64,000 nt of DNA, taken from an uncultured Actinomycetota bacterium. GTDB taxonomy: Bacteria > Actinomycetota > Actinomycetes > Frankiales > Frankiaceae. This document shows, piece after piece, positions 34,040-62,558 of this stretch (the stretch's first letter is position 1; each line of letters opens with the position of its first letter). A program made the position numbers and the translations under genes. Where the stretch lies: contig CAVQCZ010000005.1 of the NCBI GenBank assembly GCA_963711135.1, forward strand, positions 163,149-227,148. Reading direction: 5' to 3'. The notes beneath the pieces were generated by a model. That model made no database searches and was not told the origin of the DNA. It worked only from the letters and a program-made list of their open reading frames with translations.

Positions 34040-36613
34040 TTGACGACGCTGCCCTTCGGCGTGGCGCCACTGAAACCGTCGGACCCGACCTCCCTGGGCC
34101 GCTACCGTTTGCTCGGTCGCATCGGTGCCGGCGGTATGGGCGTCGTCTTCCTTGGCGAAGGTTCACGCGGGCTGGCCGCAGTAAAGATGATTCGCAGTGA
34201 GTTCGGCGACGACGAGGCGTTCCGGGGTCGGTTCCTGCGGGAGCTTCAGGCGTGCTTCCGCGTCTCCGGAACCTTCACCGTGCGCCTGCTCGACTTCGAT
34301 GTTGCGGCCGACCCGCCGTGGCTCGCGACCGAGTATGTCGCCGCACCTAATCTCGAACAGCTCGTTGCACGTGACGGGCCGCTGAGGAACGGCGCGCAGC
34401 TGGCACTTGCCTTAGGACTGGCCGACGCGTTAGCGACGCTGCATGCGGATGGCATCACCCACCGCGACCTCAAGCCGTCCAACGTGCTGTGCCCCGAAGG
34501 GGGCGTGAAGGTTATCGATTTCGGTATCGCGGCGACCGAGGACGCGGCGGGCCACACTTCAACCAGCCAGGTGCTGGGAAGCCCGGCGTGGATGGCTCCA
34601 GAACGGCTGACCGGCGGGCGGGCGGTACCGGCGGGCGACATCTTCGCCTGGGCGGGCATCGTGAGCTTCGCAGCCTGCGGTCATGCGCCCTTCGGCGGCG
34701 ACTACGGGCGGTTGATGTACAGCATCGTCCACGGCGAGCCCGCCGTGGACTACGAAAAGGTAGCGCCTGCGCTCCGCGAACTCGTCGCTGCGGCATTCGC
34801 TCGGCAGCCAAGCGAGCGACCGACCGCGGCTGAACTATTGACCGGGATAGCAGGCGTCGCGCAACCCGCTGCGGGTCAAGTGGCCGACGAATTCTCGCGG
34901 CTGCTCGGCGGGGACTGGACCCGCGGTGAAGATCTCGCCGTGGTCGGTGACGCCCCGACCGAAGCCGACCGGATTGCCGACGAAGCGGAGCCGGCGCCAC
35001 CGCTGAGGCCGGAAGAGTCGCAGGGGGGCGACGCTGAACTCGCCGCGACGATGCTTCGGCCTAGTGCCCGCCCGCTCGAGGCCGAGAAAACGCTAGCAAA
35101 GAGGGAACATCTTGCCCTCGAGAAGACCGCCAAGCGGCCGCGCGAGGACAGCAGCGTGCCCCTTGGCGGCAGCCCTCGCCGTCCGCTCGCAGGGCCTGCG
35201 ACAGCGGCTCGCAAGAGTCGTCGGCGACCGCTGGTCATGCTGGTTGCCGCAGCGGTCGTTCTGCTTGGCGCAGGTAGCGGTATCGCCGTCGCCCTGACCT
35301 CTGGTGGTGGTTCGGCCCGAGCTGGTTCGGCTCCTGCTGCGAACAGGTCCTCGTCCGCGGCATCCGCCAGCAAACTCTCCGCGCCAGCGGCAGGAAGCTT
35401 CGGAAGCCTGACAAAGGTTTGTGCGCCGGGCAACGGGACGGACGGGTTGGGCCGCGGCTTGAGTGGCAAGACGATCCGCGTCGGCGTTCTGGCCGACGCA
35501 GGGGCCGCTGCTGCGCCGGGCCTGGGGCAGGAGTTCTTCGACGCTGCAGACGCCTTCGCCAAATGGTGCAACGCCGCTGGCGGCATCAACGGGCGTCAGC
35601 TCATCGTCGACAAGCTCGACGCGGCGCTCTTCGACGGCGCTCAGCGCATCAGCGAGGCCTGTCAAAGGGACTTCATGCTCGTCGGCGGCGCCAACGTGCT
35701 CGACTCCGCCGACGTCAAGCCGCGCCTTGCATGCAACCTAAGCCAGATACCGGCGGGCAGCTTCTCGCCGGAGGCGGCGAATGCAGGGTTGCAGGTCCGC
35801 CCGACAGCCGGACTCCCTGGCCTCTTTCCCGTAGGCCCGCTGCGCCTGCTTGCCGAGGCCGATCCGACTACCCAGCAGGCGCTGGGGATCGGCAGCAGCA
35901 CCCTGTCGTCCATAGCCATCAATGCGAGTGCGGCACAAGCGGCCTACCAGAAGCTCGGCTACAAGGTAGTGGCCCTGCAGTCCCGCCCGCCGACGGTCGA
36001 CAACTACCAGTCCTGGTTCGAGAAGATGAAGCAAGCTGGAGCATCGGCCGATTTCGAGCTCGCAAGCGTGAATGTCGCCCCGATGTTCGATGGCATGAAA
36101 GGCGCCGGATTCCAGCCGGATTGGGTCCTGCTGTCACCAGGGGAGTACGCGCCCTCGCTGGTTCAAGCGGCAGCAAGCTCCAGCTACCTGCCGAACACCT
36201 ATGTTGGACTGGACTTCCTGCCATTCGAGCTCGCGGCGAAGTTCCCGGTCGTGCAGCAGGTGAAAGACATGCTGTCCGCGGCGGTCGCTTCCCCGCGGTT
36301 CGATACCAACACGATTCTGGCTTTCAATGCTTGGATGCTGTGGGCGCAATCAGCGACGGCGTGCGGGGGGGTCTTCACCCCGCAATGTGTATTGCAGCAG
36401 GCTGCGTCGCACCCGGCTTGGGACGCGGGGGGCCTGATCGCTCCCGTAGACACCAACCCGGCCTCGTATCGTCCGAGTGACTGCACACTTCTCATGCGAC
36501 TGACCGCTGCAGGCTGGGTCTACGACTCCCAGGCGACGAAGCCCAACCGCGGTGTCTACAACTGTGATCCGAAGAATCTGGTCACCACGCCAAGTAACGA
36601 GCCGGGCGCCTAG
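34040..36613 (+). CDS. Receptor Ser/Thr protein kinase with an extracellular type-1 PBP (Leu/Ile/Val-binding-like) sensor domain
   Basis: It has a TTG start. Kinase motifs are present (GAGGMGVVFLG, HRDLKPSNVL, DFGIA). A TM segment is visible (LVMLVAAAVVLLGAGSGIAVAL). The ectodomain (GKTIRVGVLADAGAAAAPGLGQEFFDAADAFAKWCNAAGGINGRQLIVDKLDAAL) is colinear with the solute-binding protein at 18540..19958. Confidence 0.85.
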   Translation: MTTLPFGVAPLKPSDPTSLGRYRLLGRIGAGGMGVVFLGEGSRGLAAVKMIRSEFGDDEAFRGRFLRELQACFRVSGTFTVRLLDFDVAADPPWLATEYVAAPNLEQLVARDGPLRNGAQLALALGLADALATLHADGITHRDLKPSNVLCPEGGVKVIDFGIAATEDAAGHTSTSQVLGSPAWMAPERLTGGRAVPAGDIFAWAGIVSFAACGHAPFGGDYGRLMYSIVHGEPAVDYEKVAPALRELVAAAFARQPSERPTAAELLTGIAGVAQPAAGQVADEFSRLLGGDWTRGEDLAVVGDAPTEADRIADEAEPAPPLRPEESQGGDAELAATMLRPSARPLEAEKTLAKREHLALEKTAKRPREDSSVPLGGSPRRPLAGPATAARKSRRRPLVMLVAAAVVLLGAGSGIAVALTSGGGSARAGSAPAANRSSSAASASKLSAPAAGSFGSLTKVCAPGNGTDGLGRGLSGKTIRVGVLADAGAAAAPGLGQEFFDAADAFAKWCNAAGGINGRQLIVDKLDAALFDGAQRISEACQRDFMLVGGANVLDSADVKPRLACNLSQIPAGSFSPEAANAGLQVRPTAGLPGLFPVGPLRLLAEADPTTQQALGIGSSTLSSIAINASAAQAAYQKLGYKVVALQSRPPTVDNYQSWFEKMKQAGASADFELASVNVAPMFDGMKGAGFQPDWVLLSPGEYAPSLVQAAASSSYLPNTYVGLDFLPFELAAKFPVVQQVKDMLSAAVASPRFDTNTILAFNAWMLWAQSATACGGVFTPQCVLQQAASHPAWDAGGLIAPVDTNPASYRPSDCTLLMRLTAAGWVYDSQATKPNRGVYNCDPKNLVTTPSNEPGA

Positions 36614-36628
36614 GCGCTGGAGGGATCC

Positions 36629-37390
36629 ATGGCCGCATTCGAAGGACTCGATGTCGAGGCTGTCCAGGCGCAGGGTGCGCATCTGAAGGCCCAGGCGTCG
36701 CACCTCGACGGGATCATTCACGCTGTCTCAGCACTCGTGTCAAACGCCGACGCTGTATGGGCGGGCCATGATTCGACGGTGTTTGCCGGGGCGTGGCATC
36801 AGCAGCACCGCCCGGCACTCGTCGCTGCTTCCGCGGCGGTGGCCGGCCTTGGCCAGTCGGCCATCAACAACGCCACGGATCAAGCTACGACGAGCGCATC
36901 GAGTGGGTCCGGTCTTGCCGCCTCCGTCGCCCCGGGAAGCAGCTGGCAAGGTGGGAAAGATGCAGGGATCGCGGCTCTCGACGCCTTGGGCGTGTACGGA
37001 GCGGCGACGACGTTGCTGCCAAATCTGATGTCGAAGTTCCCAGGTATCGCTGGAAAACTGGATGTGGCCGGCCACATCGTCGATGACGCGAATTTGGGGG
37101 TCGACGGCTATCGGCTGGGTCAAGATGTCGCGGAAGGACACTACGTGCAGGCGGCCGGCGAGGGATATGACGCCGTCGCGGACGGGTTGAAAACCGCCCA
37201 CACTCCAGTGCCGTATCTCATCGGGGTGAACATGTCGGTGTGGAAATCCGTCTACCAGGACAGCCAGCAGGTCGACTGGTCGATGCCGATGCCCAATCCC
37301 TTGAGTGGCAGTAACTTCAAGGACATCTACGTGTCCGGAGCATGGTACGGGCTGAAGACCGGTGTCGGTCAGATTCTGGGGGACCTCTGA
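36629..37390 (+). CDS. WXG100-domain effector with an unknown C-terminal domain of about 150 aa (polymorphic-toxin-like T7SS substrate)
   Basis: The N-terminal 95 aa are paralogous to the small WXG100 protein: LDVEAVQAQGAHLKAQASHLDGIIHAVSALVSNADAVWAGHDSTVFAGAWHQQHRPAL...GLGQSAINNATDQA, with WAG as the WxG motif. A Ser/Gly linker follows, then a Gly/hydrophobic C-terminal domain. Confidence 0.75.
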   Translation: MAAFEGLDVEAVQAQGAHLKAQASHLDGIIHAVSALVSNADAVWAGHDSTVFAGAWHQQHRPALVAASAAVAGLGQSAINNATDQATTSASSGSGLAASVAPGSSWQGGKDAGIAALDALGVYGAATTLLPNLMSKFPGIAGKLDVAGHIVDDANLGVDGYRLGQDVAEGHYVQAAGEGYDAVADGLKTAHTPVPYLIGVNMSVWKSVYQDSQQVDWSMPMPNPLSGSNFKDIYVSGAWYGLKTGVGQILGDL

Positions 37391-37392
37391 TC

Positions 37393-38052
37393 GTGGACCC
37401 TGTGATGCATGCCGTGACGTTGACGGACGACGAGGTCGTTGCCGCCGCCATGGGTTTCGGCGTGGCTTGGCGCTCGCCGTTGCCGACCGTGGACAGTTCG
37501 TCCACGGTGGACCTGGCGGCCGCGGCTCGCCGGGGGTGGCGTTCCTTGACCGCGCGCGAACTTCTCGGGCAGCGGCGCGCTAGCGCGCGCGGCCTCGCTA
37601 CCCCACTCAGCGAATTGCTCGCTCCGGCATTCTCGCCTGCCACGCCGACGGTCATGTTCGTAGCCGACGACGTCAATGCCTGGCACTTGAACGAGCCGAC
37701 AATTGTGGGATATGAGCCTGCGCCAGGAACCGGGGAATGGCTTGTAGAGGCGGTGGATGCGACGGGTCTGCACTTTTTCGAACGGGGACTGCGCGCCGAC
37801 ACGCTTCAGCTGTTCCGCGCGACAGCGGACGCGGCCTATGAGCGGGGAGTCTCGACGATCGAGGATGGGGCCGAGATCAGCGACCGGCTATGGCTTTGCT
37901 TCGGCGGCCTGGCGCCAGACGGCGAAACGCTGAGGATCGCCAAGGGTAGATCCGAATGGATCTCCGTCACCGCCGGTGCAGACAGCCCGCGGTACGTCCG
38001 GTGCAGAGTCTGCCCGAGACGCTTGACGCGGCCTTCGCGCCGCATTCGGTGA
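37393..38052 (+). CDS. Immunity protein or EspG-like chaperone candidate for the upstream WXG effector
   Basis: The GTG start is 2 nt after the upstream stop. The N-terminus (AVTLTDDEVVAAAMGFGVAWRSPLPTV) is reminiscent of EspG-family N-termini. I saw no TM segment or signal peptide. Confidence 0.5.
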   Translation: MDPVMHAVTLTDDEVVAAAMGFGVAWRSPLPTVDSSSTVDLAAAARRGWRSLTARELLGQRRASARGLATPLSELLAPAFSPATPTVMFVADDVNAWHLNEPTIVGYEPAPGTGEWLVEAVDATGLHFFERGLRADTLQLFRATADAAYERGVSTIEDGAEISDRLWLCFGGLAPDGETLRIAKGRSEWISVTAGADSPRYVRCRVCPRRLTRPSRRIR

Positions 38053-38100
38053 CCGGCTAGCAGATCCCGCCCGTCAGACGGTGCGGCGCCGGAGCAGCGA

Positions 38101-38130
38101 GATCTGGGACGACCGAGGTCGTCCCAGATC
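38101..38130. terminator. Perfect 14-bp-stem hairpin between convergent genes
   Basis: The sequence is GATCTGGGACGACC-GA-GGTCGTCCCAGATC. It lies between the stop at 38052 (+) and the stop at 38137 (-). There is no U-tract, which is common in high-GC actinobacteria. Confidence 0.6.
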
Positions 38131-38136
38131 AGCTAC

Positions 38137-38409
38137 TCACTGACTCGAGACTCGTGCCTGTTCCTGCGCGTTGTTGATCGCCGACTGCCCAAGGCCGCGG
38201 ACGGCTTCTTCCGCGTTGTGCAGTGCAGGCTTGTGTTGGGTGTTCCACCAGTCCGCGAACTGCCGCGCGTCATTGCCCTGCCACACGGACTCCAGCTGGC
38301 GAACGATGCCGTCAACCGCGCTGATGACACCGTTGATGGCGTCTGCCTGGTGCTGCAGCTGGTGACCGAGACCGGTGACGGCCTCAACGTCCATTCCTAC
38401 CTGTGCCAT
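38137..38409 (-). CDS. WXG100-family (ESAT-6-like) protein; the only stand-alone copy in the window
   Basis: The protein is 90 aa: MAQVGMDVEAVTGLGHQLQHQADAINGVISAVDGIVRQLESVWQGNDARQF.... The WxG motif (WQG) lies at the centre of a helix-turn-helix-length protein. Confidence 0.9.
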   Translation of the reverse strand: MAQVGMDVEAVTGLGHQLQHQADAINGVISAVDGIVRQLESVWQGNDARQFADWWNTQHKPALHNAEEAVRGLGQSAINNAQEQARVSSQ

Positions 38410-38460: not shown

Positions 38461-41400
38461 TCATTCGAGGCCGACCGAACTGGCCGCCGTCATCACGATA
38501 GTGATGCGGACATCGTGGGGGAATGGGGAGAACTCCCCGGTTTTACTGCGGATGCCTGGCTCGTAGGCAGCGGAAGCTGGATCGTCGTCGTCGCTCCTCG
38601 GCGAACGAGAAAGCCGCGACCGGCCGGGAAATCGCCCCTTCGGCAGCGTGGGAAATCCGTCCTGAACACCGAGCCGTCGATCTGGTCGGGTTGCAGGCAG
38701 AAGCCGGCTTCGAGCAGACCTGGCCACCGTCAACAGCGGATAGCTGGAGTTGAACGCGCCCACCTCCCCCTCGCACAGCACCAGATGGCCCCGCCGCGCC
38801 GCCGTCTTGATGAGGTTCTGCAACGGCACGTCTGCGGCAGTGTTGAGGAAGTCCGGCAGTCCTTCGATGAAAAGGGTGACCGGTGCCGCTCCCGGCGCGT
38901 CGAGCTGAGGCAAGAGATTCGCGCAGAAGTCGGGGACTTCGTCGGCGCTGTCGATGTTCAGCGTCCAGCGGGCGAGCTCGGACAGGCTCGTCGGCACCGA
39001 ACCGATGCGGTAGGACGCCGTAGCGGGCCGACAGCGAGCGACGGATTCGACAAGCGCGGCAACGGCGCTGGTACGGCCACTTCCGGGAGGGCCGGTCACG
39101 ATGAAGACGCCCTCAGCCGAAAAGCCGACGGGCGCCAGCGTGACCGCAGATATGCCGAGCACGGGCTGTCCCTCGACGGCAAGCGGAAGTTCGCTGAGCT
39201 GGATGTGATCAGTGAGGCGCTGGATGGGCGGGGCGGGAGCCACATCGGCACGCCTCATGGCTGTCGACAGCCGGCGCATCGCTCTGGCTTGCGCATTGGG
39301 GTCCGGGTCGGTACCCAAGATCGCAACCTGCACTTCTGACTCGTCCAGCAAGCCGCGTCCTGGGGGAGAGGACGTCTTCAGCACATCCGATGGCAGGCCC
39401 GCGAGCGCGTAGTCGGCGTCGTCAGCCATCCGCAGTACCAGCCGGCGCTGAAGGCTCGACGCCAGAGCGGTCGGGACGGCGCCTGGCCGGTCGGCGGAGA
39501 GCACGACATGGATTCCTACCGGGCGACCGTCGGAGCAGATGCTGACGAACATGTCGAACAAGCGCGCGCGCTCGCCGGCGTCGTACGCCTGGCGGAACGC
39601 CGGCAGGCCGTCGACCAGGAGCAGTATTCGAGGCTCCTGAGGCTGTTTCGCCCGGGAGCGATAGTCGGTCACCGATCCCGCGTTCGCCGCGGAGTAGAGG
39701 GCGGCGCGCTCGTCCACCAAAGCGCGCAACCATCGCAGCAGGCGGGCGATGCGCTCGTCGTCGTTCCCCGAAATGATGCTGCCGACGTGTGGAAGCTCCT
39801 CGAGGAGAGAAAGGCCCCGGGAGCCGAAGTCGATGCCGTAGACGTGGCAGGGACCGCCGCGAACGGTGAAGCTTGCGGCGATGGCAATGGCCCGCAGCAT
39901 GGTGCTCTTTCCCGACCCACCGGTGCCGTAGACGGCGAGGTTGCCGTCACGGTCCGGGCGGAACGCGACGGTGGGTTGGGATTGGTTTTCCGGATCGTCG
40001 AGGAGGCCGAAGACCAGCTCGTCGTCGCGTCTGCGGGACGGAACCTGGGACTGGTTGGACAGGTCGTAAACCGTGCCGAGCTCGTTGAGCCAGGGCTTGC
40101 GCGGAACCGGTACTTCCGCTGATTCGCTCGCCTGCCTGATCGCACCCACAAGCCGTTGGATGTCGGTGGGGCCGAGGTCGGTGTGTACGGGTGCGCCGGC
40201 CGCGATCTCCCAAACCCGCCCGGAGCCGAACGTCAGCTCCTCGACCAGGATCTCGGGCGGCGGGGGTTCGGCCTTTGTCCAGCCGCCGACGTAGCCGGCT
40301 TGAAACGGCACCAGCCGGCCGGGTCCCGTCTTCGAGACCGAGCGTCCGGGCAGCGACGGGTCAAAGAACGCGGCCTGTGGCGAGCCGAGCACGTCAGTGC
40401 TGTCGTACTCGTCAGCCATGCGGAGCGCCAGGCGCAGGTTGGTGTTCGCCCGCAGCTTGTCCTTGATGACTCCGGCCGGCTGCTGAGTGGCGAGTATCAG
40501 GTGGAGCCCGAGTGAGCGTCCACGCTGGGCCACATTGACCACACCGTCGACGAATTCCGGGACCTCTTGCACCAGAGCTGCGAACTCGTCGACGACGATC
40601 ACCAGGCTGGGAGGCGCGTCGGTCTGGCCGAGCTTCTCCAAGCTCATGAGGTCTTTGGCCCCATGGGTGCTCAGCACCTTCTCGCGGTAGCGAAGTTCGG
40701 CGGAGAGCGAGGTCAGCGCCCGCCGTACCAAGTGGGGGCTCAGGTCGGTAACGAGACCCACGGTGTGGGGGAGTTCCACGCAATCCCGAAACGCCGACCC
40801 ACCCTTGTAATCGACCAGCAGGAAGGTCAACCGCTGCGGACTGTGAGCCGCCGCCATGGCCAGGATCCAGGTTTGCAGGAGCTCGCTCTTGCCTGATCCC
40901 GTCGTCCCGCCGACGAGCGCATGCGGACCGTCAGAGCGCAAATCGAGTGCATGCGGCTCGCCTGCCGCCTGCCCGATGACGGCGCGAAGAGTTCCCGCAT
41001 GGCGCACCGGCTCCGCAGGTGCCATCGGTCCGGTGAGGATGGAACGATTCTCGGTCCAGCGACCGAGCACGGAACCAGCGGTGGCGTCCAGCCGCGAGCC
41101 CGGCAGACCGAGCAGCGAGACGCTGCGGGGAAGGTCGCTGTCGTCGTCGATCCTGGCTCCGGCATCGACGATCGGCGAGAGCATTCGGGCCAGCAAGTTG
41201 GCGTCTGCGGCATCGACGAGATCGGGTGAGACGGGCTCTACAATCTCACCCGACTGGACGTAGCCGATCCGGGTGTTGGCGTTCTGCACGTTGCGGGCAT
41301 CGATGAACGTGCGGCAGGCCGCGGGAAGCAGACCGGGAGTCGGGGCGAGCCACACGACGAAAACCCCGTGCTTCCAACCGGTTTCGGCGAGCTCGACCAG

Positions 41401-42942
41401 GCGACTGTGATCGACCGGAGCATCCGCTTCGATCATTACGAGAGCCGCAGGCAGAAGGTCCGGAGCATCCGAGCCGGCCCGCTGCTGGATCACCGACTCT
41501 ATTTCCGAAATCAGCTTCACCGCATCGGGGGCCGTGCATGCCAGCTGGCGCGCCTCGATGGGGCTGTGCACAGAGGTCGTGTGCGGGAGCCATTTCAGCC
41601 AGTCCCAGTCGGCGGCGGATGCCGAAGACGCGAATCCGGTGATGACCAGCTCCGCGGGGGAGTGCAGGACCGCTGCCTGGCAGAGCACGGAACGTGCAGC
41701 CGCCAGCAAGGCGGGACGCGGTCCGGCTATGCCAAGTGCTCCATCTTCAGCAAGCCGGGCAACCACGGGGACGGAATCGACAAACGAAAACCGCTCGGTT
41801 GCGGCGATGGCTTCGTGCAGCAGCGCACGAGAACCGCGTGTGCCCGCTGGCAGCCGCACAGTGCTGCGCGACGCCTGACGGCCGAGCCCCAAGCGGATCT
41901 CGGCGAAGCCCGGCTCGCCCGGACGACGGGTCCAGAGCAGATCGGCATGGCGTGCGGCGGCGTCCAGGCAATCCCGGGAAGACGGGTGTTCCTGCAGCCG
42001 GGCGGCAACCTCAGCCACGCGCGCCTGCTCGGCTCGGTCGACCGTTTCCGCCAAGTCGGCCCTGAAGGCCTTGACCGCAGCGCGATGACCCGACCGGCCG
42101 GAGAGCCGGGATTCAACCGCGTTTCCGATCAGCATGAGCGGACTCAGTGCGATGAAGATCAGCGACGTTGCCGACTTGGTGATGAGGAAGAGCAGACCGC
42201 CGATCACCAGAGGGGCAATCAGTGGCACGAAGGGGAACCGCGATTGCTTAGGCGGGTCAGGCAGCTCCGGGACGTCGGATTCCAGTCCCTGGAATCGGGG
42301 CTCCAAGCGAGGAGGGCGTATCCAGAGGATGCTGGACTGGTCGCCGTCGGTGGCCGTGCGGGGCGCAGGTGCGGCCTTCAGCATCAGCTCCGAGTCGCCG
42401 GCAAGGACCCGATCTCCCACCCGGAGAACACACCGGGAGATGCTGTCCCCTCCGACCGATAGGCCGTTCGCAGAGCCGAGATCCGCGATCTCGACGTCGT
42501 TGGTGACGTTGAGCCGAGCATGCTGACGCGAGACAAGTGGATCGTTCAGCGTCACCTCGCAGTTGGGGTCTCGTCCGATGAGGCTGCTGCCGCGGGCAAG
42601 CCGGAATTCCTTGCCGGTGTCCGGTCCAGCCGTTACCGCAAGCACCGCGACCCCTACCGCTTCCGGGTCTTGGTAGCGGTTCCCCTCGCGGCTGAGCGTG
42701 ACCGTAGCGCCCGAGCGCAGTCCGCTTTCGCCGAGCGGAAGCCGGGGATCAAGCGCCCGGGTGTCGCGGCTCACGACCGCGAGGGTCGCCCGTTCGTCGC
42801 GGATGAGGCTGCTGCCGGTGTCTGCAGTGTCGGCGGTGCTCAGGAACCTCGCGAGGTCGCCGACTGTGGCTCGGGCATCGGCCGTCACGAGGAGATCGAC
42901 GGTGCTCCCGCCGGAGCGCTGAAGCGTGAATTTGAGTTTCAC
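38461..42942 (-). CDS. eccC: T7SS FtsK/SpoIIIE-family ATPase (EssC/EccC-like) with N-terminal ubiquitin-like and FHA domains; 3' end apparently frameshifted
   Basis: Three P-loops are present: GGTTGSGKSE, GTGGSGKST and GPPGSGRTS. The N-terminus (KFTLQRSGGSTVDLLVTADARATVGDLARFL...GLRSGATVTL) looks YukD/Ubl-like. The FHA domain reads LIGRDPNCEVTLNDPLVSRQHARL...GSANGLSVGG. Two TM helices follow. After about 38710, the family-typical tail (AGFCLQPDQIDGSVFRTDFPRCRRGDFPAGRGFLVRRGATTTIQL) lies in the +1 frame. The corrected stop would then be at 38493-38495. Confidence 0.85.
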   Translation of the reverse strand: MKLKFTLQRSGGSTVDLLVTADARATVGDLARFLSTADTADTGSSLIRDERATLAVVSRDTRALDPRLPLGESGLRSGATVTLSREGNRYQDPEAVGVAVLAVTAGPDTGKEFRLARGSSLIGRDPNCEVTLNDPLVSRQHARLNVTNDVEIADLGSANGLSVGGDSISRCVLRVGDRVLAGDSELMLKAAPAPRTATDGDQSSILWIRPPRLEPRFQGLESDVPELPDPPKQSRFPFVPLIAPLVIGGLLFLITKSATSLIFIALSPLMLIGNAVESRLSGRSGHRAAVKAFRADLAETVDRAEQARVAEVAARLQEHPSSRDCLDAAARHADLLWTRRPGEPGFAEIRLGLGRQASRSTVRLPAGTRGSRALLHEAIAATERFSFVDSVPVVARLAEDGALGIAGPRPALLAAARSVLCQAAVLHSPAELVITGFASSASAADWDWLKWLPHTTSVHSPIEARQLACTAPDAVKLISEIESVIQQRAGSDAPDLLPAALVMIEADAPVDHSRLVELAETGWKHGVFVVWLAPTPGLLPAACRTFIDARNVQNANTRIGYVQSGEIVEPVSPDLVDAADANLLARMLSPIVDAGARIDDDSDLPRSVSLLGLPGSRLDATAGSVLGRWTENRSILTGPMAPAEPVRHAGTLRAVIGQAAGEPHALDLRSDGPHALVGGTTGSGKSELLQTWILAMAAAHSPQRLTFLLVDYKGGSAFRDCVELPHTVGLVTDLSPHLVRRALTSLSAELRYREKVLSTHGAKDLMSLEKLGQTDAPPSLVIVVDEFAALVQEVPEFVDGVVNVAQRGRSLGLHLILATQQPAGVIKDKLRANTNLRLALRMADEYDSTDVLGSPQAAFFDPSLPGRSVSKTGPGRLVPFQAGYVGGWTKAEPPPPEILVEELTFGSGRVWEIAAGAPVHTDLGPTDIQRLVGAIRQASESAEVPVPRKPWLNELGTVYDLSNQSQVPSRRRDDELVFGLLDDPENQSQPTVAFRPDRDGNLAVYGTGGSGKSTMLRAIAIAASFTVRGGPCHVYGIDFGSRGLSLLEELPHVGSIISGNDDERIARLLRWLRALVDERAALYSAANAGSVTDYRSRAKQPQEPRILLLVDGLPAFRQAYDAGERARLFDMFVSICSDGRPVGIHVVLSADRPGAVPTALASSLQRRLVLRMADDADYALAGLPSDVLKTSSPPGRGLLDESEVQVAILGTDPDPNAQARAMRRLSTAMRRADVAPAPPIQRLTDHIQLSELPLAVEGQPVLGISAVTLAPVGFSAEGVFIVTGPPGSGRTSAVAALVESVARCRPATASYRIGSVPTSLSELARWTLNIDSADEVPDFCANLLPQLDAPGAAPVTLFIEGLPDFLNTAADVPLQNLIKTAARRGHLVLCEGEVGAFNSSYPLLTVARSARSRLLPATRPDRRLGVQDGFPTLPKGRFPGRSRLSRSPRSDDDDPASAAYEPGIRSKTGEFSPFPHDVRITIVMTAASSVGLE
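38525..38538 (-). promoter_or_regulatory. Palindrome GGGGAG-TT-CTCCCC (read on the minus strand), copy 1 of 3
   Basis: The plus strand reads GAATGGGGAGAACTCCCCGG. It lies about 115 nt upstream of the WXG100 start, inside the 3' end of the ATPase gene. Confidence 0.5.
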
Positions 42943-45281
42943 GACGGAGTGTCCGTGAGTGAGGCCGCCGTCAGGTTAGGCGGAAGCAGGGATCGCAAGC
43001 TGAGGGCGGTGCGGATCCGTTGCCGGCGGCTGAGCGAATCTGTCATGGTGCGTCGAGTCTTGTCGACCATGCTCCAGTACTCAGCAGCCGCTTCCGGTGA
43101 CAGCGCATCCGGACCGAAAATGCGCGCGTCCGCGGCGATCGCCAGCGGGCGGACATCGTGCTCACCGATCGCCGAGGCCTGCTCGCGCCGGGTCCGCCCA
43201 CTGGGAACGGCGAAGCCAAGGTCGCGCGCCAGGTCCACAATCTCGTGCCAGCCCCGTGCGATGCGCGTTTGGGCGGTGCCCCGCTGACGTCGTCGTGACC
43301 GTCGCCGCGCCTTCGTGCCGACGACCACACCGACGAAAAGCAATACGGCGAGGATCGGAGGGCCGCCCCACTGAGCAGCAGTCACAAGGAAATGCGGAAT
43401 ACGAAACCCGGCGCCGGCTTGCTTCTTGTGATTGGGGCTGGAGTGCAGCGAGCTGGTGTCGGCCGTTGCGGCGGTGTCGAGGGTGCTCGGCGGCCGCGTT
43501 GGATTCGGCGGTGGCACGATCGAGGCGGTCGCGTCAGACACCTTCTGCGGAGGCTGTTTCGTCGGCTTCTTCGACTGCGGGGGCATGAACTTCGTCTGGG
43601 GCACCGCAACCCACCTGCCGTCACCAAGGTGCATCTCGACCCAAGCGTGGACGTCACGACCTTTGATCACGCCGTTGGCCTCGGGAGTGGCTCCGAGTAC
43701 GACCCGGGTCGGCATCCCGAGATCGTTGGCCAGCAGCGCGAACGCGGCCGCGTACTGCTCGTCGTCGCCGACAATCTGCGTCGAGTTCAGAAAGGACGTG
43801 AGGCGCCCTACGCTGTGTCCGGGCAGGTACTGGCCTTCGCCCTTCCCGCCATCGCTGTAGAAACCCGCAGTGTGCAAGTGCGTTGCCACCGCCTGCACTT
43901 CAGCCCAGACGTCACCGGTCTTCCCGGCCCATTGCGCGGCGCGATTGGCGACGAAACTGGTAACCGACGACTGGAGGGCTGGTTGGCCGTACGGGCGCAA
44001 TTGCTGCGGCGCCTTGGTATCCAGCACCGTGTGCAGCGTGTACGTGTCGCCGGCCTTGAGCTGATCCGTGACCACTCCAGCGGAAGTCGCGAGGTTGTAG
44101 CGGAAGCTGGCGGCATGGCTGGTGCTGTCTGCGCCGGAGAAGCTCACGGAACGCAGGCTGCCCGCCTCCGGAACCCAGGCGTTGGCGTCAGAGATGGCCG
44201 CATACCCCGGCGCGATGGTGATTTCTACTGCCGTCGATGGGCCATTCGACTCCGCGGGTATCCGGGTGCCGACCTTCTGGAAAGAGTCTTCAGGCTCGTT
44301 GGAGCTGACCAGGCTTCCTGAGCTGGCACCCCAGACCGAGCCGTTGTAGCTGTCGAGTACGGCGAAGCGTAGGGGCTGCCCTGCGGGTAGGCCGTGCACC
44401 GTCAGAAGTTGCTGGTCGTAGAGCAGCTTGGCGTCTTTCGTGTACTTGCGGAAGCCGACCAGTGGGCTCGCGTAGGTGCTCAAGTCCAGCGGAGGCTGAA
44501 CATAAGCCCGCACCACAACCCGTTTGTGGGTCGACACTCCAGGCAGATGCGGCCCCACAAAGGCCGCGAGCGGCGCGGTTATGGCCAGCAGCGCGACAGC
44601 CGTCACGGCGCGGCTGCGCTGCCGGCTTCCGTTCTGCACCAGCGGATTGATGCGCTGAGACCGGACAGCCGCCCACCCGATCGCAACGGCAGCGAAGCCC
44701 AAACCCTGAACCCAGCGCGCGGCGGGCTGGGCCGTCCCGAGCAGGATCACGACCGATAGGAGCGCGATCGGTGCGAGCAGCGGCGTGACGGCGTTGCGCA
44801 ACCGCCGGGCCATCGTCATGCCGATGGCTCCGCAGGCGAGACCGAGCAGGTACGGCAGGACGAGCAGCGGCCCGCTCCCGTCGACCGGAGGCAACGTGGT
44901 CACCAGCTGCTTCCAGCCGTTGACACTCACCGACGCCAAATGCTTTACGGCACTCGCAGTGGGAAGCACCCCGATGGCGGTCTGGGTCCGCAGCGCGATG
45001 GCGCCTCCGAGCAAGAAGAACGTCAGAACGGTGACGACGGCAATGGCGATGATCGGCTGCCGGAGCACGTTGGCGAAATGGCCGATGAGCAGACCTAAGA
45101 CGAGTCCAGCCACGCCGACGAGAAGGTAGGACTGGCCGGTGTACGTCGTACGGAAGCCCAGCAGGGCAACGACCGACAGGACTGCCAGAAAGCCGGCGTC
45201 CTGCGCGTCGGCACGCGTGACCCGCCAGTGAATGCGACGGACCTCGCGACCGGCACCGGGCGAAAAAACAGCGCTACTCAT
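42939..45281 (-). CDS. Polytopic transglutaminase-like membrane protein (TgpA-like)
   Basis: About six N-terminal TM helices are visible. The core reads QIVGDDEQYAAAFALLANDLGMPTRVVLG...DVHAWVEMHLGDGRWVAV. A late TM segment and a basic tail follow. Start and stop overlap the neighbouring genes (GTGA at 42939-42942, ATGA at 45278-45281). Confidence 0.75.
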   Translation of the reverse strand: MSSAVFSPGAGREVRRIHWRVTRADAQDAGFLAVLSVVALLGFRTTYTGQSYLLVGVAGLVLGLLIGHFANVLRQPIIAIAVVTVLTFFLLGGAIALRTQTAIGVLPTASAVKHLASVSVNGWKQLVTTLPPVDGSGPLLVLPYLLGLACGAIGMTMARRLRNAVTPLLAPIALLSVVILLGTAQPAARWVQGLGFAAVAIGWAAVRSQRINPLVQNGSRQRSRAVTAVALLAITAPLAAFVGPHLPGVSTHKRVVVRAYVQPPLDLSTYASPLVGFRKYTKDAKLLYDQQLLTVHGLPAGQPLRFAVLDSYNGSVWGASSGSLVSSNEPEDSFQKVGTRIPAESNGPSTAVEITIAPGYAAISDANAWVPEAGSLRSVSFSGADSTSHAASFRYNLATSAGVVTDQLKAGDTYTLHTVLDTKAPQQLRPYGQPALQSSVTSFVANRAAQWAGKTGDVWAEVQAVATHLHTAGFYSDGGKGEGQYLPGHSVGRLTSFLNSTQIVGDDEQYAAAFALLANDLGMPTRVVLGATPEANGVIKGRDVHAWVEMHLGDGRWVAVPQTKFMPPQSKKPTKQPPQKVSDATASIVPPPNPTRPPSTLDTAATADTSSLHSSPNHKKQAGAGFRIPHFLVTAAQWGGPPILAVLLFVGVVVGTKARRRSRRRQRGTAQTRIARGWHEIVDLARDLGFAVPSGRTRREQASAIGEHDVRPLAIAADARIFGPDALSPEAAAEYWSMVDKTRRTMTDSLSRRQRIRTALSLRSLLPPNLTAASLTDTPS

Positions 45282-46612
45282 TGAAGACCTATTCCGCGAA
45301 GAAGGCGGGGAAGGTCAGTCAGCCCGGGTAGGGAGAGCACTGTCACGCTGTTGCTCTCCGCGATGTCGACCCGATTGCTGGGATCGACGCGGATGACGAC
45401 CTTGCGGGTCTCAGGGGCAAAACGCGAGGCGGCCACCCTCAGATCGATGAAGGCGGGCAGCGGGCCCGTCACGATGAACGCCAAACTGGTGTCAGGGGCT
45501 TTGCGCACGGCGTCGCCCGCTTGGTGCAGGAGCGGCGGCTGGCCCAAGCCGGCACGGCTGAAGGCGTCGAGTGTCAGGTGTGCCGGCTTGCGGTCCGCGA
45601 ACTGACCGCCAGTGAGGACGGTCGTCTCCATCTCATCCAAGATGGCCCGTACCGCAAGGGAAGCTCCGACTTGCAAGGCGACCTCGAACGTCTCGGGATC
45701 GTCGTAACTGCCGGCGTGCCCGTCGACCAGGACGAGCAGCTGGGACCGGCGCGTGTCGAGGAACTGGCGCACGAGAAAGGGTGCCTGCGGGTTAGCTCCC
45801 ATCGCCTTGGCGGACGAGCGCCAATGAATGAACCGCCGATCGTCCCCGGGGGCGAATTCCCGCAGCGCGTTGAACGCGAGGTCGCTCATCGACAGGTCTG
45901 TGGTGGGTTGGCCCTCGAGATCGCGCAGGAGCCCCGAGCCGAGCGATGGGACTGAGATCGTCTTGGGGTGCACGAACAGCTCCGTCATCTCCGTCCACGG
46001 AACAGCGCGGCGCAGCAACCCGAAAGGATCCCCACGAACGGTGGTTGCCGGGCCGATCGGGATCACCCCGCGGGCGTCGGTCGGCACGACAAAGAGCTCC
46101 TCGTGTGCGACGCCCGGGCGCAGGCTGGGAAGCGAAAACCGCGCCTTGGAGGTCGCGATCGGGAGCTCCAAGGCAAGCGAGAAGAGCCGCGCACGCGAAA
46201 CGTTCGTCACGCTGACTTGACCAGCCGCCGGGGCGCCGACGACGACCCGGCGCGGGTGTACCTCGACCGAAACGCGAAGCGTGGTGCGGCCGATCGTGAG
46301 GGCGATCGCCAGCACGATGACGATGAGGCAGAAGGCTGCGATGAGAGCGAGTTCGATCCAGTGCAGCCGCGAGCTGAGAATCCACAGGATGACGGCAGCG
46401 ACCAAGACGGTCCATCCGAGCGGAGTGACGACGCTCGTGACGGGCCGGGACAGCCGGACGGCCAGCCGTCCGCGCGCCCGTGTCCGCTGCAGGAACGGGG
46501 CGGCAGCACTTCGCAGCGCCGTCGCTTTCGCAACCGCTTGGCCCGCAGGGCCGCTCAACGTCTTCGGCATGTGACTCTTAGGCCGCCCGTTCCGCCGGCG
46601 GAACAACCTCAT
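45278..46612 (-). CDS. DUF58-family protein (partner of MoxR ATPases)
   Basis: Two N-terminal TM helices are present. The motif NALREFAPGDDRRFIHWRSSAKAM matches the remembered DUF58 signature (REY.PGD..R.I.WK.SAR). The start could be the ATG at 46570. Confidence 0.8.
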   Translation of the reverse strand: MRLFRRRNGRPKSHMPKTLSGPAGQAVAKATALRSAAAPFLQRTRARGRLAVRLSRPVTSVVTPLGWTVLVAAVILWILSSRLHWIELALIAAFCLIVIVLAIALTIGRTTLRVSVEVHPRRVVVGAPAAGQVSVTNVSRARLFSLALELPIATSKARFSLPSLRPGVAHEELFVVPTDARGVIPIGPATTVRGDPFGLLRRAVPWTEMTELFVHPKTISVPSLGSGLLRDLEGQPTTDLSMSDLAFNALREFAPGDDRRFIHWRSSAKAMGANPQAPFLVRQFLDTRRSQLLVLVDGHAGSYDDPETFEVALQVGASLAVRAILDEMETTVLTGGQFADRKPAHLTLDAFSRAGLGQPPLLHQAGDAVRKAPDTSLAFIVTGPLPAFIDLRVAASRFAPETRKVVIRVDPSNRVDIAESNSVTVLSLPGLTDLPRLLRGIGLQ

Positions 46613-47553
46613 CGAGGATGCGCTGGATCACCTGTTCCACGGTCACGCCGCTGAACTGCGCCTCGGCGTCAAGCAGCAGCCGGTGGCCAAGCAGCGGCCC
46701 GGCGAGCTCCTTGATGTCGTCGGGGATGACGTAAGGTCCTGCCCTCGGCCGCGGCCCAGGTCTTGGCGCAGCGCACGTACGCGAGGCAGCCGCGGACCGA
46801 CAAGCCCAGCCGAACGTCGGGACGGCGTCGCGACTCCTCGGCCAGCCGGCTGACGTAGCCGAGGATCGCAGGGTCGACGTGAACCTCGTCGGCGAGGCCG
46901 GCTCATCTGCGGCGACGACATTGGCCGTGATGATGGGCTGCACCGCGGCGGTGCGGTCGCGACGCTCGGCCACGACGAGACAGCAGCGCGACGGTCGCCT
47001 CGTGGTCGGGATAGCCGAGATTCGTCTTCATCAGGAACCGGTCGAGCTGAGCCTCCGGCAGCCGATAGGTGCCGGCCTGCTCGATGGGGTTCTGGGTGGC
47101 GATGACCATGAAAGGCCGCCGACGGCATGCGCGACGCCGTCGATGGTGACGCGGCCCTCCTCCATGACCTCGAGCAGCGCCGACTGGGTCTTCGGCGAGG
47201 CCCGGTTGATCTCGTCGGCGAGCACGATGGTGGCGAAGATGGGACCGCGGATGGAACTCGAAGTCCCGGCTGCGTCTGGTCGTAGATCGTCACGCCGGTG
47301 ACGTCCGAGGGCAGCAGATCGGGCGTGAACTGGATGCGGTTGTGCGTGCCCTGGACCGTGTTCGCGAGCGCCTTCGCGAGCTGGTCTTGCCGGTGCCCGG
47401 GTAGTCCTCGAGGAGCAGGTGACCCTCGGACAGCAGGCAGGTCAGCGCGAGCCGCACAACGTGGTGCTTGCCGAGCACCGCGACCCCGACATTGTCCGCC
47501 AAGCGGTTGAACGTCTGGGCGAACCAGGACATCTGTTCTTGTGTAGCAGTCAT
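46578..47553 (-). pseudogene. moxR: MoxR-type AAA+ ATPase gene broken by at least 6 frameshifts
   Basis: The gene starts at the ATG at 47553 with an AGGTGG RBS. Family-typical pieces lie in different frames: ...[12 protein letters not shown] | [35 protein letters not shown] | [36 protein letters not shown] | [35 protein letters not shown] | [53 protein letters not shown] | [22 protein letters not shown]. The switches are near 47380, 47272, 47245, 47113, 46978, 46900 and 46733. Confidence 0.8.
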
Positions 47554-47560
47554 ATTCCAC

Positions 47561-50500
47561 CTAACCCGTATGGCCGTAAGAATTAATTGTGTTAGACGTG
47601 GCGCCGTTGATCTTTGCCCATACATGGTAATTCTGCGATCCATACCCGAACCATCTCGAGGCCGACCCTTGACCACTGGAATTGAAGGTGATCGATTGGT
47701 GCCACCAAACGCCGTTGTCTGGAGCATCGTCGTACCAGTAGACGGTGTAGGTGGTATTCGGCGCAAACCCGGTACTACTGAGATTGATGTAATGACAGGA
47801 GGAATCGCCGCCGCAATAGGATGCCGGTGCCGACCCGCCCCAGCTGATGGAGATTTGTTGAGGCGGCGGTGGTGCCGCGCCGGTGCTGCCCGTATCGCTT
47901 TGCGACGCAGATGCGCGGCCCGGATCGGAAATGGTGGCGGTCAGGGTGTCGGAGCTGCTCCACGGGATGGTGTCCGAGACGTTCCACGAACCGCCGCCGT
48001 TCACCCCGAAGGTCTGGTGTTGACCCGCACTCGTCGAGACATCAACGGTTGCAGGCCTTCCGTTCGAGTTGGCACTAACGGTGAAGGTGACGGTCTGACC
48101 GCTCACGCTGTGCGTGATGGTGGGCTGCTGGAAAGGCCCGTACGTGGTCACGGTGGCAGAAGCCGATCCGCCGCATGCGCTACCCGCAAAGGCGTCGCTT
48201 CCGTGACTGCCGTTGCAATCCTGCAACAGGATGGTGGTTGCCTGACCGTTGGTGAGGCCGCTGATGGGTTCGGTGACTCCCGACTGGCCCGCGGTCGGCA
48301 TCGGCCACGATCCGCAACTTCCTCCACCGCTGATGGTGCAGTTGACCGTGGAACTGGCGCCATAGGACGGAGGCGCGTCGAATGTCAACGTCGCGCCGCC
48401 GTCTTGCCCGGTCGCAGTCGCCGTGAAGTTCTGCGGGGTTCCGGGAGTTGCCGTGGCTTCCATTTGCACGGGATCACTGGATGGTGAGGTATGCCCGGGA
48501 CCGGTGGCGGCGTTGGCTGCGATAACGGTGTACTGGTAGATCGTCCCGTCGTTCGGTAGGCCGTCGTCGGGGCACGAGGTTGCCGCCGTGATGCCGGTAC
48601 AAACCGTCTTGGTGCCCGAGCCGCCGGTACGCGTGACGGTGTACGAGGTTGGGGCCGGGCCGTTCGGGTCGTCGGGCGTCCACGAGACCGTAACCGCGCG
48701 GGTCGCCGCAGAGTCCGTCGATGCTACGAACGTTGGAGTCGAGGGTTTAGCGGGGGCACCGGCCGACTCACCGGGGACGGGCTGCGGTATGCCACGCCCC
48801 TGCGCGTTGATCGGCGTGACGGTGAACGTGTAGGTGTGGTCGTTATCCAGGCCGCTGATCGGTGCGCTTGTTGCCGTTCCTGCGGCTGTCGAATGACCGC
48901 CGTTGTCCCAAACGATGTCGTAGGACGTCAGAGGACTGCCCTCGTTCGTCGCGGGATTCCAGCTCAGCTCCAGTGAACCGTCCTGGGGATTGCTCGTTTT
49001 CAGTCCTGAAACGGCGCCCGGCACGGTGTCAGGCTTTGCCGTTGCCGAGGACCCGCTGGGGTCGCTCCAATCGACGAGGTTGTGCGCGCGGACGGTGAAG
49101 GTGTACGTGCTGCCGTTGTGCAATCCCGTGATCAGGCATGGGGATGCCGAGCACGTCTGCGTGCTCGAGCCGTAATTGACTTCGTACCGGTCGATCGGCG
49201 CACCGTTGTTGGCGGGCGTCGTCCAGGAGAGCTCGACCGAGCGGCTCAGCACAGTGCGGCCAACCTGCGGGGTGCCTGGCGGATCCGGCTTCCCCAGTAC
49301 GTGCAGCGTGATCTGACCGGTCACCTGCCGGCTCGCAAGCGAGGAGTTGGTGGAATCGCTGACGAGCACCGGGAACGTCATGGTCCCGTGGGCGTTCGCG
49401 GCCGGCGTGATCGTGACCGTGGATCCCTGGAAGGAGGCGGTCGCGTTGCTGCCGTTCGCCGTCACGTGCAGGACGCTGACCACCGCGTCGCGTAACGGTG
49501 ACGACACGTATCCCTTCAGATCGACTGTCGCCGTGCTGCCGGCTTTGACGCCGTCGATGGTGACCGGGGTGAATGACGGTGGTGCCGCCTCCTGCACCCT
49601 GAATTGGAGTGTCGAAGGCGTGGCGTCCGTGCCGTCTGCTTTCACCACCAGGACTGCAGTCCTGCCCGGCGTCGCGCCGCCTGCCGCCGTGACACTCAGC
49701 GTCGAGGTCCCGGATCCGCCGACGGCGAGGCCGTCTGAGCCGCCTTGCCACGAGCCGGAGAAACGAAGCTGGCTTCGCTCCTGTGCGGTTGGCGTCCAGA
49801 CGTGGCAGACCGAGGGGATATCGACCGCTACTGCAGGGCCTCCCGTTGTGACCGTCAGCGGGCTTTCGGGGCAGCGCAGCACCGGAGTCGGCGGGCCCAC
49901 CTGCACGGGAACCGTAAGGACCGCGGTCTGCCCGCTGGGGTCGGTCAATGAGTTTCCATCGGTGACTTCAAACGTGATCGCGGCCGGGCCTACATATCCG
50001 GGACGGCCGGTGAGGACGAGCTGGTCCTTACCGGAATTGCGTACCGCCAGGCCGCTTGCCGGGCTTGCCCAGATGTGGCTGGTGATCGTGAGTCGTACAG
50101 GTTTGCCGGCGGGGTCAATCACGAGATCCGCCAGGGGCACGGTCTTGGTAGCGCCCTTGTCGATGGAGATCGAAGCCCCGGGTTTGGTGTACGGGGCCCC
50201 GGAACCGACACCCGGGACGTGGATTACCGCGGCCGCCGTTGCACCGCCGGCGTCCTTGATTTCGTACGCGACGGTTTGGGGATGGTCGAGGACCGGGATC
50301 CTCACTTTCCCGTCGGTGGTCACCGTCGCCCCGGGAGCGAAGACATGGCTGACGACGAGCTGGTCGGACGGGCCGTCGGGGTCGACGGCCTTCGCCAGGA
50401 CGTCGACCGTGACGGCAGTGGCCTTGGGACCCGGCTTCGCGTCGGTATCCAGGGCCACGGGCGGGATGTCATGCTGCGCTTCACTGCGCACCGTCAGTGT

Positions 50501-53500: not shown

Positions 53501-53833
53501 GTTGTCTCGCGCGATCACGGCTGCACCGTCTTGCGACACGTCAAGCGTGGAGGTTTCGCGCGCACCGCCGGGCGGGTTGAACGCCCCGTCGAGCGCGCCC
53601 GCCGGTTTGTTCACACGTCCGAAAAGGTCTTGAGCGTTGTTCGTGACCCAGATCCCGCCGTCGTGGAGATTCACGTGTTGAACGGGGTATCCGTTCGACG
53701 TCAGGGCGAACGCCACGAGGGTGGAAGCCCCCACTGCCAGAGCCGCAGTTGACGCAAGCGCCGTCTGATGGCGCTTCAGAAACCCCAATGCATCCCCCGG
53801 AACATCTAACCTGAAAAAAACAGGTACGGCCAA
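47561..53833 (-). CDS. Giant (2090 aa) membrane-anchored surface protein with a propeller-like N-domain, many cadherin/Ig-like domains, FN3 domains and a Trp/Tyr-rich C-terminal domain
   Basis: The N-terminal TM segment is [20 protein letters not shown]. Cadherin-like signatures recur ([61 protein letters not shown]). FN3 units are visible ([23 protein letters not shown]..., [22 protein letters not shown]...). The TTG start at 53833 is uncertain. The stop is 7 nt before the moxR start. Confidence 0.85.
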
Positions 53834-62057: not shown

Positions 62058-62558
62058 ATGACGGCGAGCGCGCACCTGCAAGGCCGGGTCGAGGCTTTGC
62101 TGCGTCGCAATGATGTGTTGTTCCAGCTTTCTGACGATGGCGCCTTCGTGGCGGCATTTGGCGGCGACGGCATCCCGCCGCTCGTCGTTCGCTTGACGGT
62201 TTCCGAGGGCCCGGCACTATCGTTCAAGGCTTTCTTGGTTTGCCTCTACACGGCAGATTGGGCGCCCTGCCTGTACGTGCAGCTCAATCGATGGCACTGT
62301 CGCGAAAGGTGGCCCCGAGGCTTCGTCGTCTTCGATGAGCCCAGCAGCTCCAGCGCGATCGAACTTGCTGTGTTCGCCGACCATCATGTGCCGCTCAGTC
62401 CGTCCGTCAGTGACGGGCAGCTCGATCTGTGGCTGTGGTCTTTCGTCGCGGCTGCCGATGACCTGCTGACGACGGTCTATTTGGCTGCGCCGGAGGAGGC
62501 GGATCCTTTGCCGATGCCGTCTGCGGCCGAGCTGGATCGCTGGTTTCAAGCGGAATGA
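62058..62558 (+). CDS. Small acidic cytoplasmic protein, possibly a YbjN/secretion-chaperone-like fold
   Basis: The protein is 166 aa with no TM segment. The family call rests only on size, composition and context. Its stop overlaps the next start (ATGA). Confidence 0.4.
   Translation: MTASAHLQGRVEALLRRNDVLFQLSDDGAFVAAFGGDGIPPLVVRLTVSEGPALSFKAFLVCLYTADWAPCLYVQLNRWHCRERWPRGFVVFDEPSSSSAIELAVFADHHVPLSPSVSDGQLDLWLWSFVAAADDLLTTVYLAAPEEADPLPMPSAAELDRWFQAE

Follow-up and report, generated by a model that had tools for sequence, protein, structure and literature searches.

A conserved WXG100-domain protein and its coupled partner in a predicted Esr-linked, T7SSd/e-like secretion locus of an uncultured Actinomycetota bacterium

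Within a 64,000-nucleotide (nt) stretch of DNA from an uncultured Actinomycetota bacterium of the family Frankiaceae (contig CAVQCZ010000005.1, positions 163,149 to 227,148; hereafter the window), we analyzed two adjacent forward-strand genes. The first (P0001, 36629..37390) encodes a 253-amino-acid (aa) protein, here called WXG-X, that consists of an N-terminal WXG100 hairpin, a linker and a C-terminal domain termed X. The second (P0006, 37405..38052) encodes a protein of 215 aa as called, here referred to as the partner. X and the partner are two uncatalogued protein families that were found side by side at every one of the loci compared, and we see an even chance that they represent a conserved cargo of an Esx-type type VII secretion system (T7SS) and its dedicated chaperone, as opposed to a swappable toxin-immunity pair. 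The original prediction for these genes had described a WXG-domain effector with a new, possibly membrane-active toxin domain, coupled to either an immunity protein or a secretion chaperone; the observation behind it is confirmed, and its interpretation is partly supported by the data presented below.

The WXG-X gene begins 15 nt past the TAG stop codon (36611-36613) of a receptor Ser/Thr kinase gene (34040..36613, forward strand; Pkinase domain with a Peripla_BP_6 ectodomain according to Pfam), and a GGAGG motif (36619-36623) lies 5 nt ahead of its ATG. Given this short gap, and since no promoter-like site was found in the interval between the two genes, co-transcription of the kinase gene and WXG-X is probable. 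The WXG100 hairpin occupies residues 1-97 (36629-36919), with a W44-A45-G46 motif in the turn. It is followed by a disordered linker rich in Gly, Ser and Ala (residues 98-127; 36920-37009) and the helical domain X of ~125 aa (residues 128-253; 37010-37387), the conserved core of which spans residues ~160-253. The Pfam WXG100 model (PF06013) matched WXG-X with an E-value of 0.02 and 15.6 bits, under the 27.3-bit gathering cut-off. Structure prediction with AlphaFold2 from a 62-sequence alignment, used in place of a model from 4 sequences only with a predicted local distance difference test score (pLDDT) of 34, produced a helical hairpin for residues 11-90 (pLDDT 93-98), disorder for residues 98-127, and helices for residues 128-253, with pLDDT values of 76-90 from residue ~160 onward. 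Foldseek aligned the hairpin with EsxA/EsxB structures (3zbh, 3gwk, 4j41 and 2vrz) at target TM-scores of 0.77-0.87 and a probability of 1.0, and the 62 aligned family members nearly all retain W44 and G46. At the level of the predicted structure, a WXG100 fold is confirmed for the N-terminus despite the subthreshold Pfam score, and this fold, together with linkage to an EssC-type ATPase gene, bears out the initial view of WXG-X as a type VII substrate.

Domain X has no match in Pfam, NCBIfam, PADLOC or PHROGs, among PDB sequences searched with an X profile, or among PDB folds searched with Foldseek, the comparison that had been suggested at the outset, so the domain is as unplaceable as the original prediction had found it. 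The ESM Atlas returned a top score of 0.84 for X, with no informative family and nothing over noise. A word-indexed search recovered only two metagenomic homologs and the in-genome paralog, and a pattern search of genome contigs with X patterns yielded no confirmed locus. An exhaustive X profile search of 1.84 billion cluster representatives (clustered at 50% identity) retrieved 117 proteins at E ≤ 0.001, including 42 at E ≤ 1e-10, corresponding to a family of at least 117 clusters. Nearly all of these proteins are 250-330 aa long and share the same layout, with the WXG domain first and X at the C-terminus. PF06013 was matched at the N-terminus of 33 of the 62 aligned members (E ≤ 0.01), no other family was matched, and the only database names attached to members are "YukE", "WXG100 family type VII secretion target" and "hypothetical". 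The window protein is complete through its C-terminus and can be aligned with its homologs over the full length; among them, residues 112-253 are conserved with E-values of 1e-64 to 1e-66.

The conserved core of X can be approximated as G-x-Y-x-x-A-A ... G-L-K-x-S-x-N-P-V-x-Y-L-x-G-V-N ... D-W-x-x-G-x-P-N-P-F-x-G-x-N ... Y-x-P. Near-invariance within it is confined to Leu, Pro and Gly (L187, P193, L197, G199, P222 and P224), and no conserved His/Cys/Glu/Ser constellation of catalytic type is present in the family alignment; judging from this alignment, X is probably non-enzymatic. The suggestion that X might be membrane-active fares poorly. X is acidic (pI 4.5), and the highest 19-residue Kyte-Doolittle hydropathy of both WXG-X and X itself is 1.44, under transmembrane grade. 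Strict GxxxGxxxG motifs are not enriched in the family (22 observed, compared to 25.7 ± 5.1 in shuffled sequences), and the looser small-xxx-G-xxx-small motifs are mildly enriched, chiefly in the linker. A membrane or glycine-zipper domain is unsupported for the window protein on these grounds. We also considered whether X might be a second, degenerate WXG hairpin, as weak secondary matches of local hidden Markov models would allow, but hhalign assigned only a 0.15% probability to its alignment with WXG domains. As a separate observation, 13 of the 62 family members possess a segment of Gly, Ala and other small residues just past the WXG domain (~95-135) with transmembrane-like hydropathy (≥1.6). 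The window protein reaches only 1.44, and in the other proteins the segment could be a membrane tether or a mere linker.

The partner gene was originally placed 2 nt downstream of WXG-X, and a GTG codon (37393) does sit 2 nt past the WXG-X stop as an alternative start, but the N-termini of homologs and the database gene call favor the ATG at 37405. No hydrophobic segment is present in the partner (highest 19-residue Kyte-Doolittle hydropathy 1.14), which argues for a cytoplasmic protein, and strand-like segments can be inferred from its sequence. At least 97 family proteins were retrieved by a partner profile search, mostly of ~205 aa and with neither a Pfam domain nor a name. The invariant motifs of this family are LTDDE, PLPTVD, RGxRSLxxRxL and GVH. 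The partner has no match in PADLOC or PHROGs, and its profiles produced only chance-level matches, none of them to an EspG structure, among PDB sequences. An open reading frame (ORF) at 62555..63244 was rejected as a second copy of the partner, with 17% identity in a gap-riddled alignment. Both WXG-X and the partner are taken to be real genes because they have many homologs in conserved synteny, far above chance.

This synteny was assessed at 15 independent loci, retrieved via either protein from different samples and genomes (the window; L001 and L002; L009/10, L011/12 and L014; L015, L016 and L017; L063, from genome G405; L064 and L065; L067, L068 and L069). The partner lies directly behind WXG-X in all 15, often with overlapping stop and start codons, in line with the tight coupling to a cytoplasmic product noted in the window. 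The prevailing gene order is small WXG100 (90 aa), WXG-X, partner, usually behind an FHA-domain EssC gene and a MoxR/DUF58/transglutaminase module. In what appears as the canonical operon (L064, L065, L013/14 and L011), the series runs moxR, DUF58, transglutaminase, FHA-essC, small WXG100, WXG-X, partner. Linkage to EssC was observed in the window, at a distance of ~400 bp from the pair, and also in L011, L013/14, L063, L064 and L065. In loci other than the window, WXG-X comes right after the small WXG100 gene in the same orientation, whereas the window has the pair in reverse orientation compared to the canonical operon, converging on the small WXG100 gene and sitting behind the receptor kinase gene.

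WXG-X is the only extended substrate in many loci, while some encode a third extended WXG protein with an NlpC/P60 domain (L011:7155-7952), an alpha/beta hydrolase domain (G405, L063:13128-14264) or, in the window, a CHAP domain. The WXG domains of these extended proteins group by locus and not by cargo type, indicating a shared, locus-adapted handle. Pairwise identities of X and of the partner are correlated (r = 0.89 over 78 locus pairs; partial r = 0.67 when controlling for the WXG domain), a relationship that is descriptive only, because the locus pairs are not independent. WXG-X and the partner are each single-copy in this genome, and no immunity arrays, orphan immunity genes or warhead swapping were found among the 15 loci. 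At L001:2102-2605, a gene behind the pair has a weak PhdYeFM antitoxin match and is not conserved in the other loci.

The distribution of the pair is sparse. Among species-representative genomes, and counting this one, X was found in 2 of 401 in a sample of the phylum and the partner in 4 of 401 in a sample of the class, and the named carriers of the pair are metagenome-assembled genomes of uncultured Actinomycetes or Actinomycetota. The module persists to partner-profile E-values of 1e-16. Both genes are absent from four genomes that possess EssC homologs, one of which is a full-length protein 47% identical to that of the window, and neither was found in 12 congeners, which also lack this EssC altogether.

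Evidence on the role of the partner comes from protein-language-model features, which for two members of the family lead to clusters of T7SS chaperones. Of the 100 named clusters nearest to the window partner, 77 carry DUF5081 (EsaE), YfjC_N or ESX-1_EspG; the neighbors listed score 0.87-0.93 and have 178-204 features in common with it. EsaE, YfjC and EspG are type VII chaperones that have the EspG fold in common at negligible sequence identity (PMC12478183; PMC11217815; bioRxiv 10.1101/2023.08.02.551746). The partner is a cytoplasmic protein encoded beside a helical cargo in a T7SS locus, as such chaperones are, with the adjacency holding at all 15 loci, and in the loci compared no further conserved gene that could serve as an immunity gene was found behind the pair.

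The closest parallel in gene arrangement is YfjA-YfjB-YfjC of the Bacillus subtilis T7SSb, where a small WXG100 protein, a cargo and a cytoplasmic partner are encoded in the same order (bioRxiv 10.1101/2023.08.02.551746). As with X, the cargo YfjB has no recognizable enzymatic domain, and YfjC lacks sequence similarity to known proteins, adopts an EspG-like fold, and is needed for cargo function (bioRxiv 10.1101/2023.08.02.551746). However, the C-terminal half of YfjB is hydrophobic with a glycine zipper, and its immunity protein, YfjD, resides in the membrane, whereas X is acidic, not of transmembrane grade, and accompanied by no conserved immunity gene. The two systems also differ in phylum and T7SS subtype, and the likeness between them rests on gene order and language-model features, not on sequence homology. 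EsaD-EsaE of Staphylococcus aureus and the PE/PPE-EspG systems of mycobacteria similarly combine a cargo that is helical at its N-terminus with a cytoplasmic chaperone encoded alongside (PMC12478183, PMC11217815). Unlike EsaE and EspG, the partner fails to match PF14011, PF16887 or EspG sequences by hhalign, is shorter (~205-215 aa) and contains strongly conserved motifs, and EsaD has a separate immunity protein, EsaG, for which no counterpart was seen beside WXG-X.

A number of results weigh against the cargo-chaperone reading. PF14011 and PF16887 were matched at E ≤ 1 by none of the 52 partner-family members, and searches with the same models in the genome itself found nothing at the partner locus. 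Aligning the partner with 26 mycobacterial EspG sequences by hhalign gave probabilities of 0.2-0.95%, the weak partner-profile matches in EspG-rich genomes fall on genes that are not EspG, and no EspG structure was retrieved from the PDB sequences with the partner profile. Moreover, the strictly conserved acidic and basic motifs and His123 of the partner are atypical of EspG-type chaperones and could, from their conservation, mark an enzyme or a ligand site. The slot directly behind a T7SS cargo, with a cytoplasmic product, is also where immunity genes are classically encoded. Lastly, frame disruptions seen in the sequence of the partner tail, essC and moxR (described below) may reflect either a module that is inactive here or assembly indel errors. 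A search for DUF5081 in 301 genomes of the phylum had no match, but the control genomes were equally silent, so this negative does not bear on the question. The initial impression that the partner resembles EspG is mirrored by language-model features and by no alignment. Membership in the EspG/EsaE/YfjC families is not established, and a function like that of these chaperones is the leading, albeit unproven, interpretation. With EspG homology failing every alignment test run, the choice between chaperone and immunity protein, both of which had been proposed at the outset, leans toward the chaperone without being settled.

The genes surrounding the pair were annotated with Pfam and NCBIfam. Convergent with the partner, and on the reverse strand, is a small WXG100 (EsxA-like) gene (38137..38409; 90 aa), the product of which is ~50% identical to the WXG domain of WXG-X. 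Between the two genes lies an inverted repeat (38101..38130) of two perfectly matching 14-bp arms around a 2-nt spacer, which from its sequence is likely a bidirectional terminator hairpin, albeit one without a T-tract. Continuing on the reverse strand is the gene for an FHA-bearing type VII ATPase of the EssC/EccC type (38461..42942), with an Esr-type sensing module assigned to the same operon: genes for a transglutaminase-like protein (42939..45281), a DUF58 protein (45278..46612), a MoxR protein (AAA_3) whose gene is disrupted (46643..47560) and a 2090-aa surface protein with Ig, cadherin and fn3 domains (47561..53833). They are followed by signaling genes assigned to this system, which encode a Ser/Thr kinase (54666..56288), an FHA protein with the domain at its C-terminus (56285..58072) and a PP2C phosphatase (57888..58673). 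Farther along, on the forward strand, is the other extended WXG protein of the window, in keeping with the initial designation of WXG-X as the second of its kind. This WXG-CHAP peptidoglycan hydrolase (P0005, 60399..61271) has a WXG domain 67-70% identical to that of WXG-X. It, too, contains a Gly/Ala-rich, moderately hydrophobic segment right behind the WXG domain (residues 103-121, hydropathy 1.47). The three WXG-type genes of this genome are all in this one locus beside EssC.

Because the Pfam content of the region from 38137 to 58673 fits published descriptions (PMC11217815 and PMC13622651), the locus is, as judged from its sequence, a T7SSd/e-like Esx system linked to an Esr sensing module. 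The component lists for T7SSd and T7SSe are those of Garrett, Higginson and Palmer (PMC11217815), and our comparison covered the FHA-bearing EssC/EccC, small WXG100 protein, Ser/Thr kinase, large Ig-like surface protein, PP2C, separate FHA protein, MoxR, DUF58/vWA and transglutaminase, all of which are encoded here. From Schaalia comes the description of a sensing pathway termed "Esr" that is coupled to Esx and includes EsrG-EccC fusions (PMC13622651). An ortholog of this EssC was found in none of 12 genomes of the same genus (G001-G012), where the housekeeping FtsK alone matched, and the Esr-Esx locus (38461-58673) consequently behaves as an island here.

These data are consistent with a model in which WXG-X would be exported as cargo by the FHA-EssC type VII (Esx) ATPase encoded next to it. 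The WXG100 hairpin, the fold and linkage of which are supported by the results above, would function in export and dimerization as a handle that is common to the CHAP-bearing paralog and closely related to the small EsxA-like neighbor. X would be the functional part, probably non-enzymatic and acting via its Pro/Asn/Trp-rich motifs NPVxYLxGVN and DWxxGxPNPFxGxN. The partner, dedicated to X, would bind the cargo before export, keep it soluble and secretion-competent, and itself stay in the cell. The triad of small WXG100 protein, WXG-X and partner would then serve Esr-linked, T7SSd/e-like Esx systems, mostly of uncultured soil Actinomycetes, as a conserved module for output.

Synteny places the triad in a position corresponding to that of AesA and AesB, the Esr-gated cargos of Schaalia odontolytica (PMC13622651), and by analogy the triad may have a similar role. 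The Schaalia system is of the same type, with a MoxR/vWA-DUF58/transglutaminase/surface protein/kinase/PP2C/FHA module wired to EccC (PMC13622651). Its cargos are likewise encoded in the esx cluster, and include a helical N-terminus, a variable Gly-rich linker and short conserved C-terminal motifs. In contrast to WXG-X, AesB has an FXG instead of a WXG motif, an extended Gly-rich stretch that is disordered, and a charged tail in which a GYNVP motif is found, a comparison with X made by description only. AesA is a co-secreted helical protein, whereas the partner of WXG-X is a soluble protein with strand-like segments. A more far-reaching version of the cargo-chaperone reading, which we put forward tentatively and with less than even confidence, is that the triad constitutes a so far undescribed output module at the core of Esr-linked T7SSd/e-like systems of soil Actinomycetes, in which X is the conserved non-enzymatic effector released by these threat-sensing systems, a functional counterpart of AesA/AesB, and the partner founds a branch of the EspG/EsaE/YfjC fold that is unrecognizable by sequence, in a subtype reported without such a chaperone.

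It is also conceivable, although we regard it as unlikely, that X acts as an antibacterial toxin domain of a new kind that the T7SS delivers, and that the partner neutralizes it in the producer and in sister cells. The succession of trafficking domain, linker, C-terminal domain and coupled downstream gene is the architecture of LXG/WXG polymorphic toxins, and the WXG handle is common to the enzyme-bearing cargos (CHAP, NlpC/P60 and alpha/beta hydrolase) of the same loci. X and the partner co-diverge, as toxin-immunity pairs do. Both are missing from some loci with similar EssC, which would make the pair accessory to the machine, and there is no other conserved immunity candidate nearby. However, there are counterarguments: X has neither invariant residues of catalytic type nor a known toxin fold, the pair is a fixed, co-diverging module at 15 of 15 loci with no swapping of warheads, orphan immunity genes or arrays, and the features of the partner resemble those of chaperone families and not of immunity families. 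Additionally, a membrane toxin would predict a membrane-bound immunity protein, as for TspA/TsaI and YfjB/YfjD, and the partner is soluble.

Comparison with the LXG/WXG polymorphic toxins that employ Lap factors and Ltc (DUF4176) chaperones leads to a similar assessment. In these toxins, an N-terminal helical trafficking domain is common to varied C-terminal domains, the middle region is disordered, and a cytoplasmic chaperone is specific to each cargo (PMC12478183); all of this has parallels here, with the partner as the putative chaperone. Among the features expected of a polymorphic toxin, we found a shared N-terminal handle on alternative C-terminal domains (X, CHAP, NlpC/P60 and alpha/beta hydrolase), but neither a recognizable toxin C-terminus nor a warhead and immunity that vary by strain. 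X differs from these toxins as a fixed domain with a fixed partner instead of a variable warhead, and neither a DUF4176 nor an LXG match was obtained.

A further possibility, to which we likewise assign a low probability, is that WXG-X is an obligate co-substrate of the machine, like EsxB or a PPE protein, the export of which with the small WXG100 protein is needed for the apparatus or for export of the enzyme cargos, and that the partner is an assembly factor. The triad is positioned directly behind essC-esxA in the canonical operon and WXG-X is often the sole extended substrate. The module also appears to be old, given the partner-profile E-values of 1e-16 to which it persists, and a second WXG100 protein is always present in T7SSe systems (PMC11217815). 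On the other hand, full-length EssC homologs, including the one that is 47% identical, are encoded in genomes without either gene, and the conserved C-terminal motifs of WXG-X suggest a function beyond dimerization.

Finally, several disruptions of reading frame bear on the state of the locus in this genome. The last ~22 residues of the partner are rich in Arg and Cys and unlike those of any homolog. Similarity to the family ends in frame at ~37971-37980, and a homolog-like tail runs on in another frame to a TAG at 38058-38060. The sequence probably contains a 1-nt indel at ~37975-37990, which would fit the loss of a single base close to the CCC run at 37986-37988. In EssC orthologs, the C-terminal ~60 residues find their match in a different frame (38726-38565), implying that the 3' end of essC is frameshifted near 38700 and that the intact protein would end near 38565 and not at 38461. 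MoxR similarity is split over two frames (46581-47246), with the AAA_3 match covering profile positions 6-52 of 131, while the DUF58 and transglutaminase genes each align in a single frame. A search of sequencing runs detected the region in no DNA run. Two metatranscriptome runs from soil, which may be a single data set deposited twice, contain a 162-nt contig that is 100% identical to part of the small WXG100 gene (38243-38404), but nothing of the pair or of the other neighboring genes. That the locus is a decaying remnant in the process of being lost from this genome, with a pair that is no longer functional, is compatible with the other readings but improbable: the disruptions in the partner tail, the essC 3' end and moxR, the inversion of the cassette relative to the canonical operon, and the failure to find the whole EssC locus in 12 congeners would be accounted for, yet WXG-X is intact and aligns end to end, the large neighboring ORFs (2090, 1493, 942 and 857 aa) are for the most part uninterrupted, errors in long-read assembly could account for the indels, and the esxA-like gene fragment occurs at 100% identity in soil metatranscriptomes.

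Esr-linked Esx systems have been described only between 2024 and 2026, and their effectors are known experimentally from a single oral species. The cargo-chaperone reading of WXG-X and its partner concerns a branch of type VII secretion for which the present analysis delineates two uncatalogued families as a constant cargo-plus-partner module in uncultured soil Actinomycetes. This module offers a concrete candidate both for the material that sensor-gated secretion systems of this type export and for the way in which the cell handles the cargo beforehand. If it is true that the partner has an EspG fold, dedicated chaperones would also be a feature of the T7SSd/e branch, from which no such protein has been reported.

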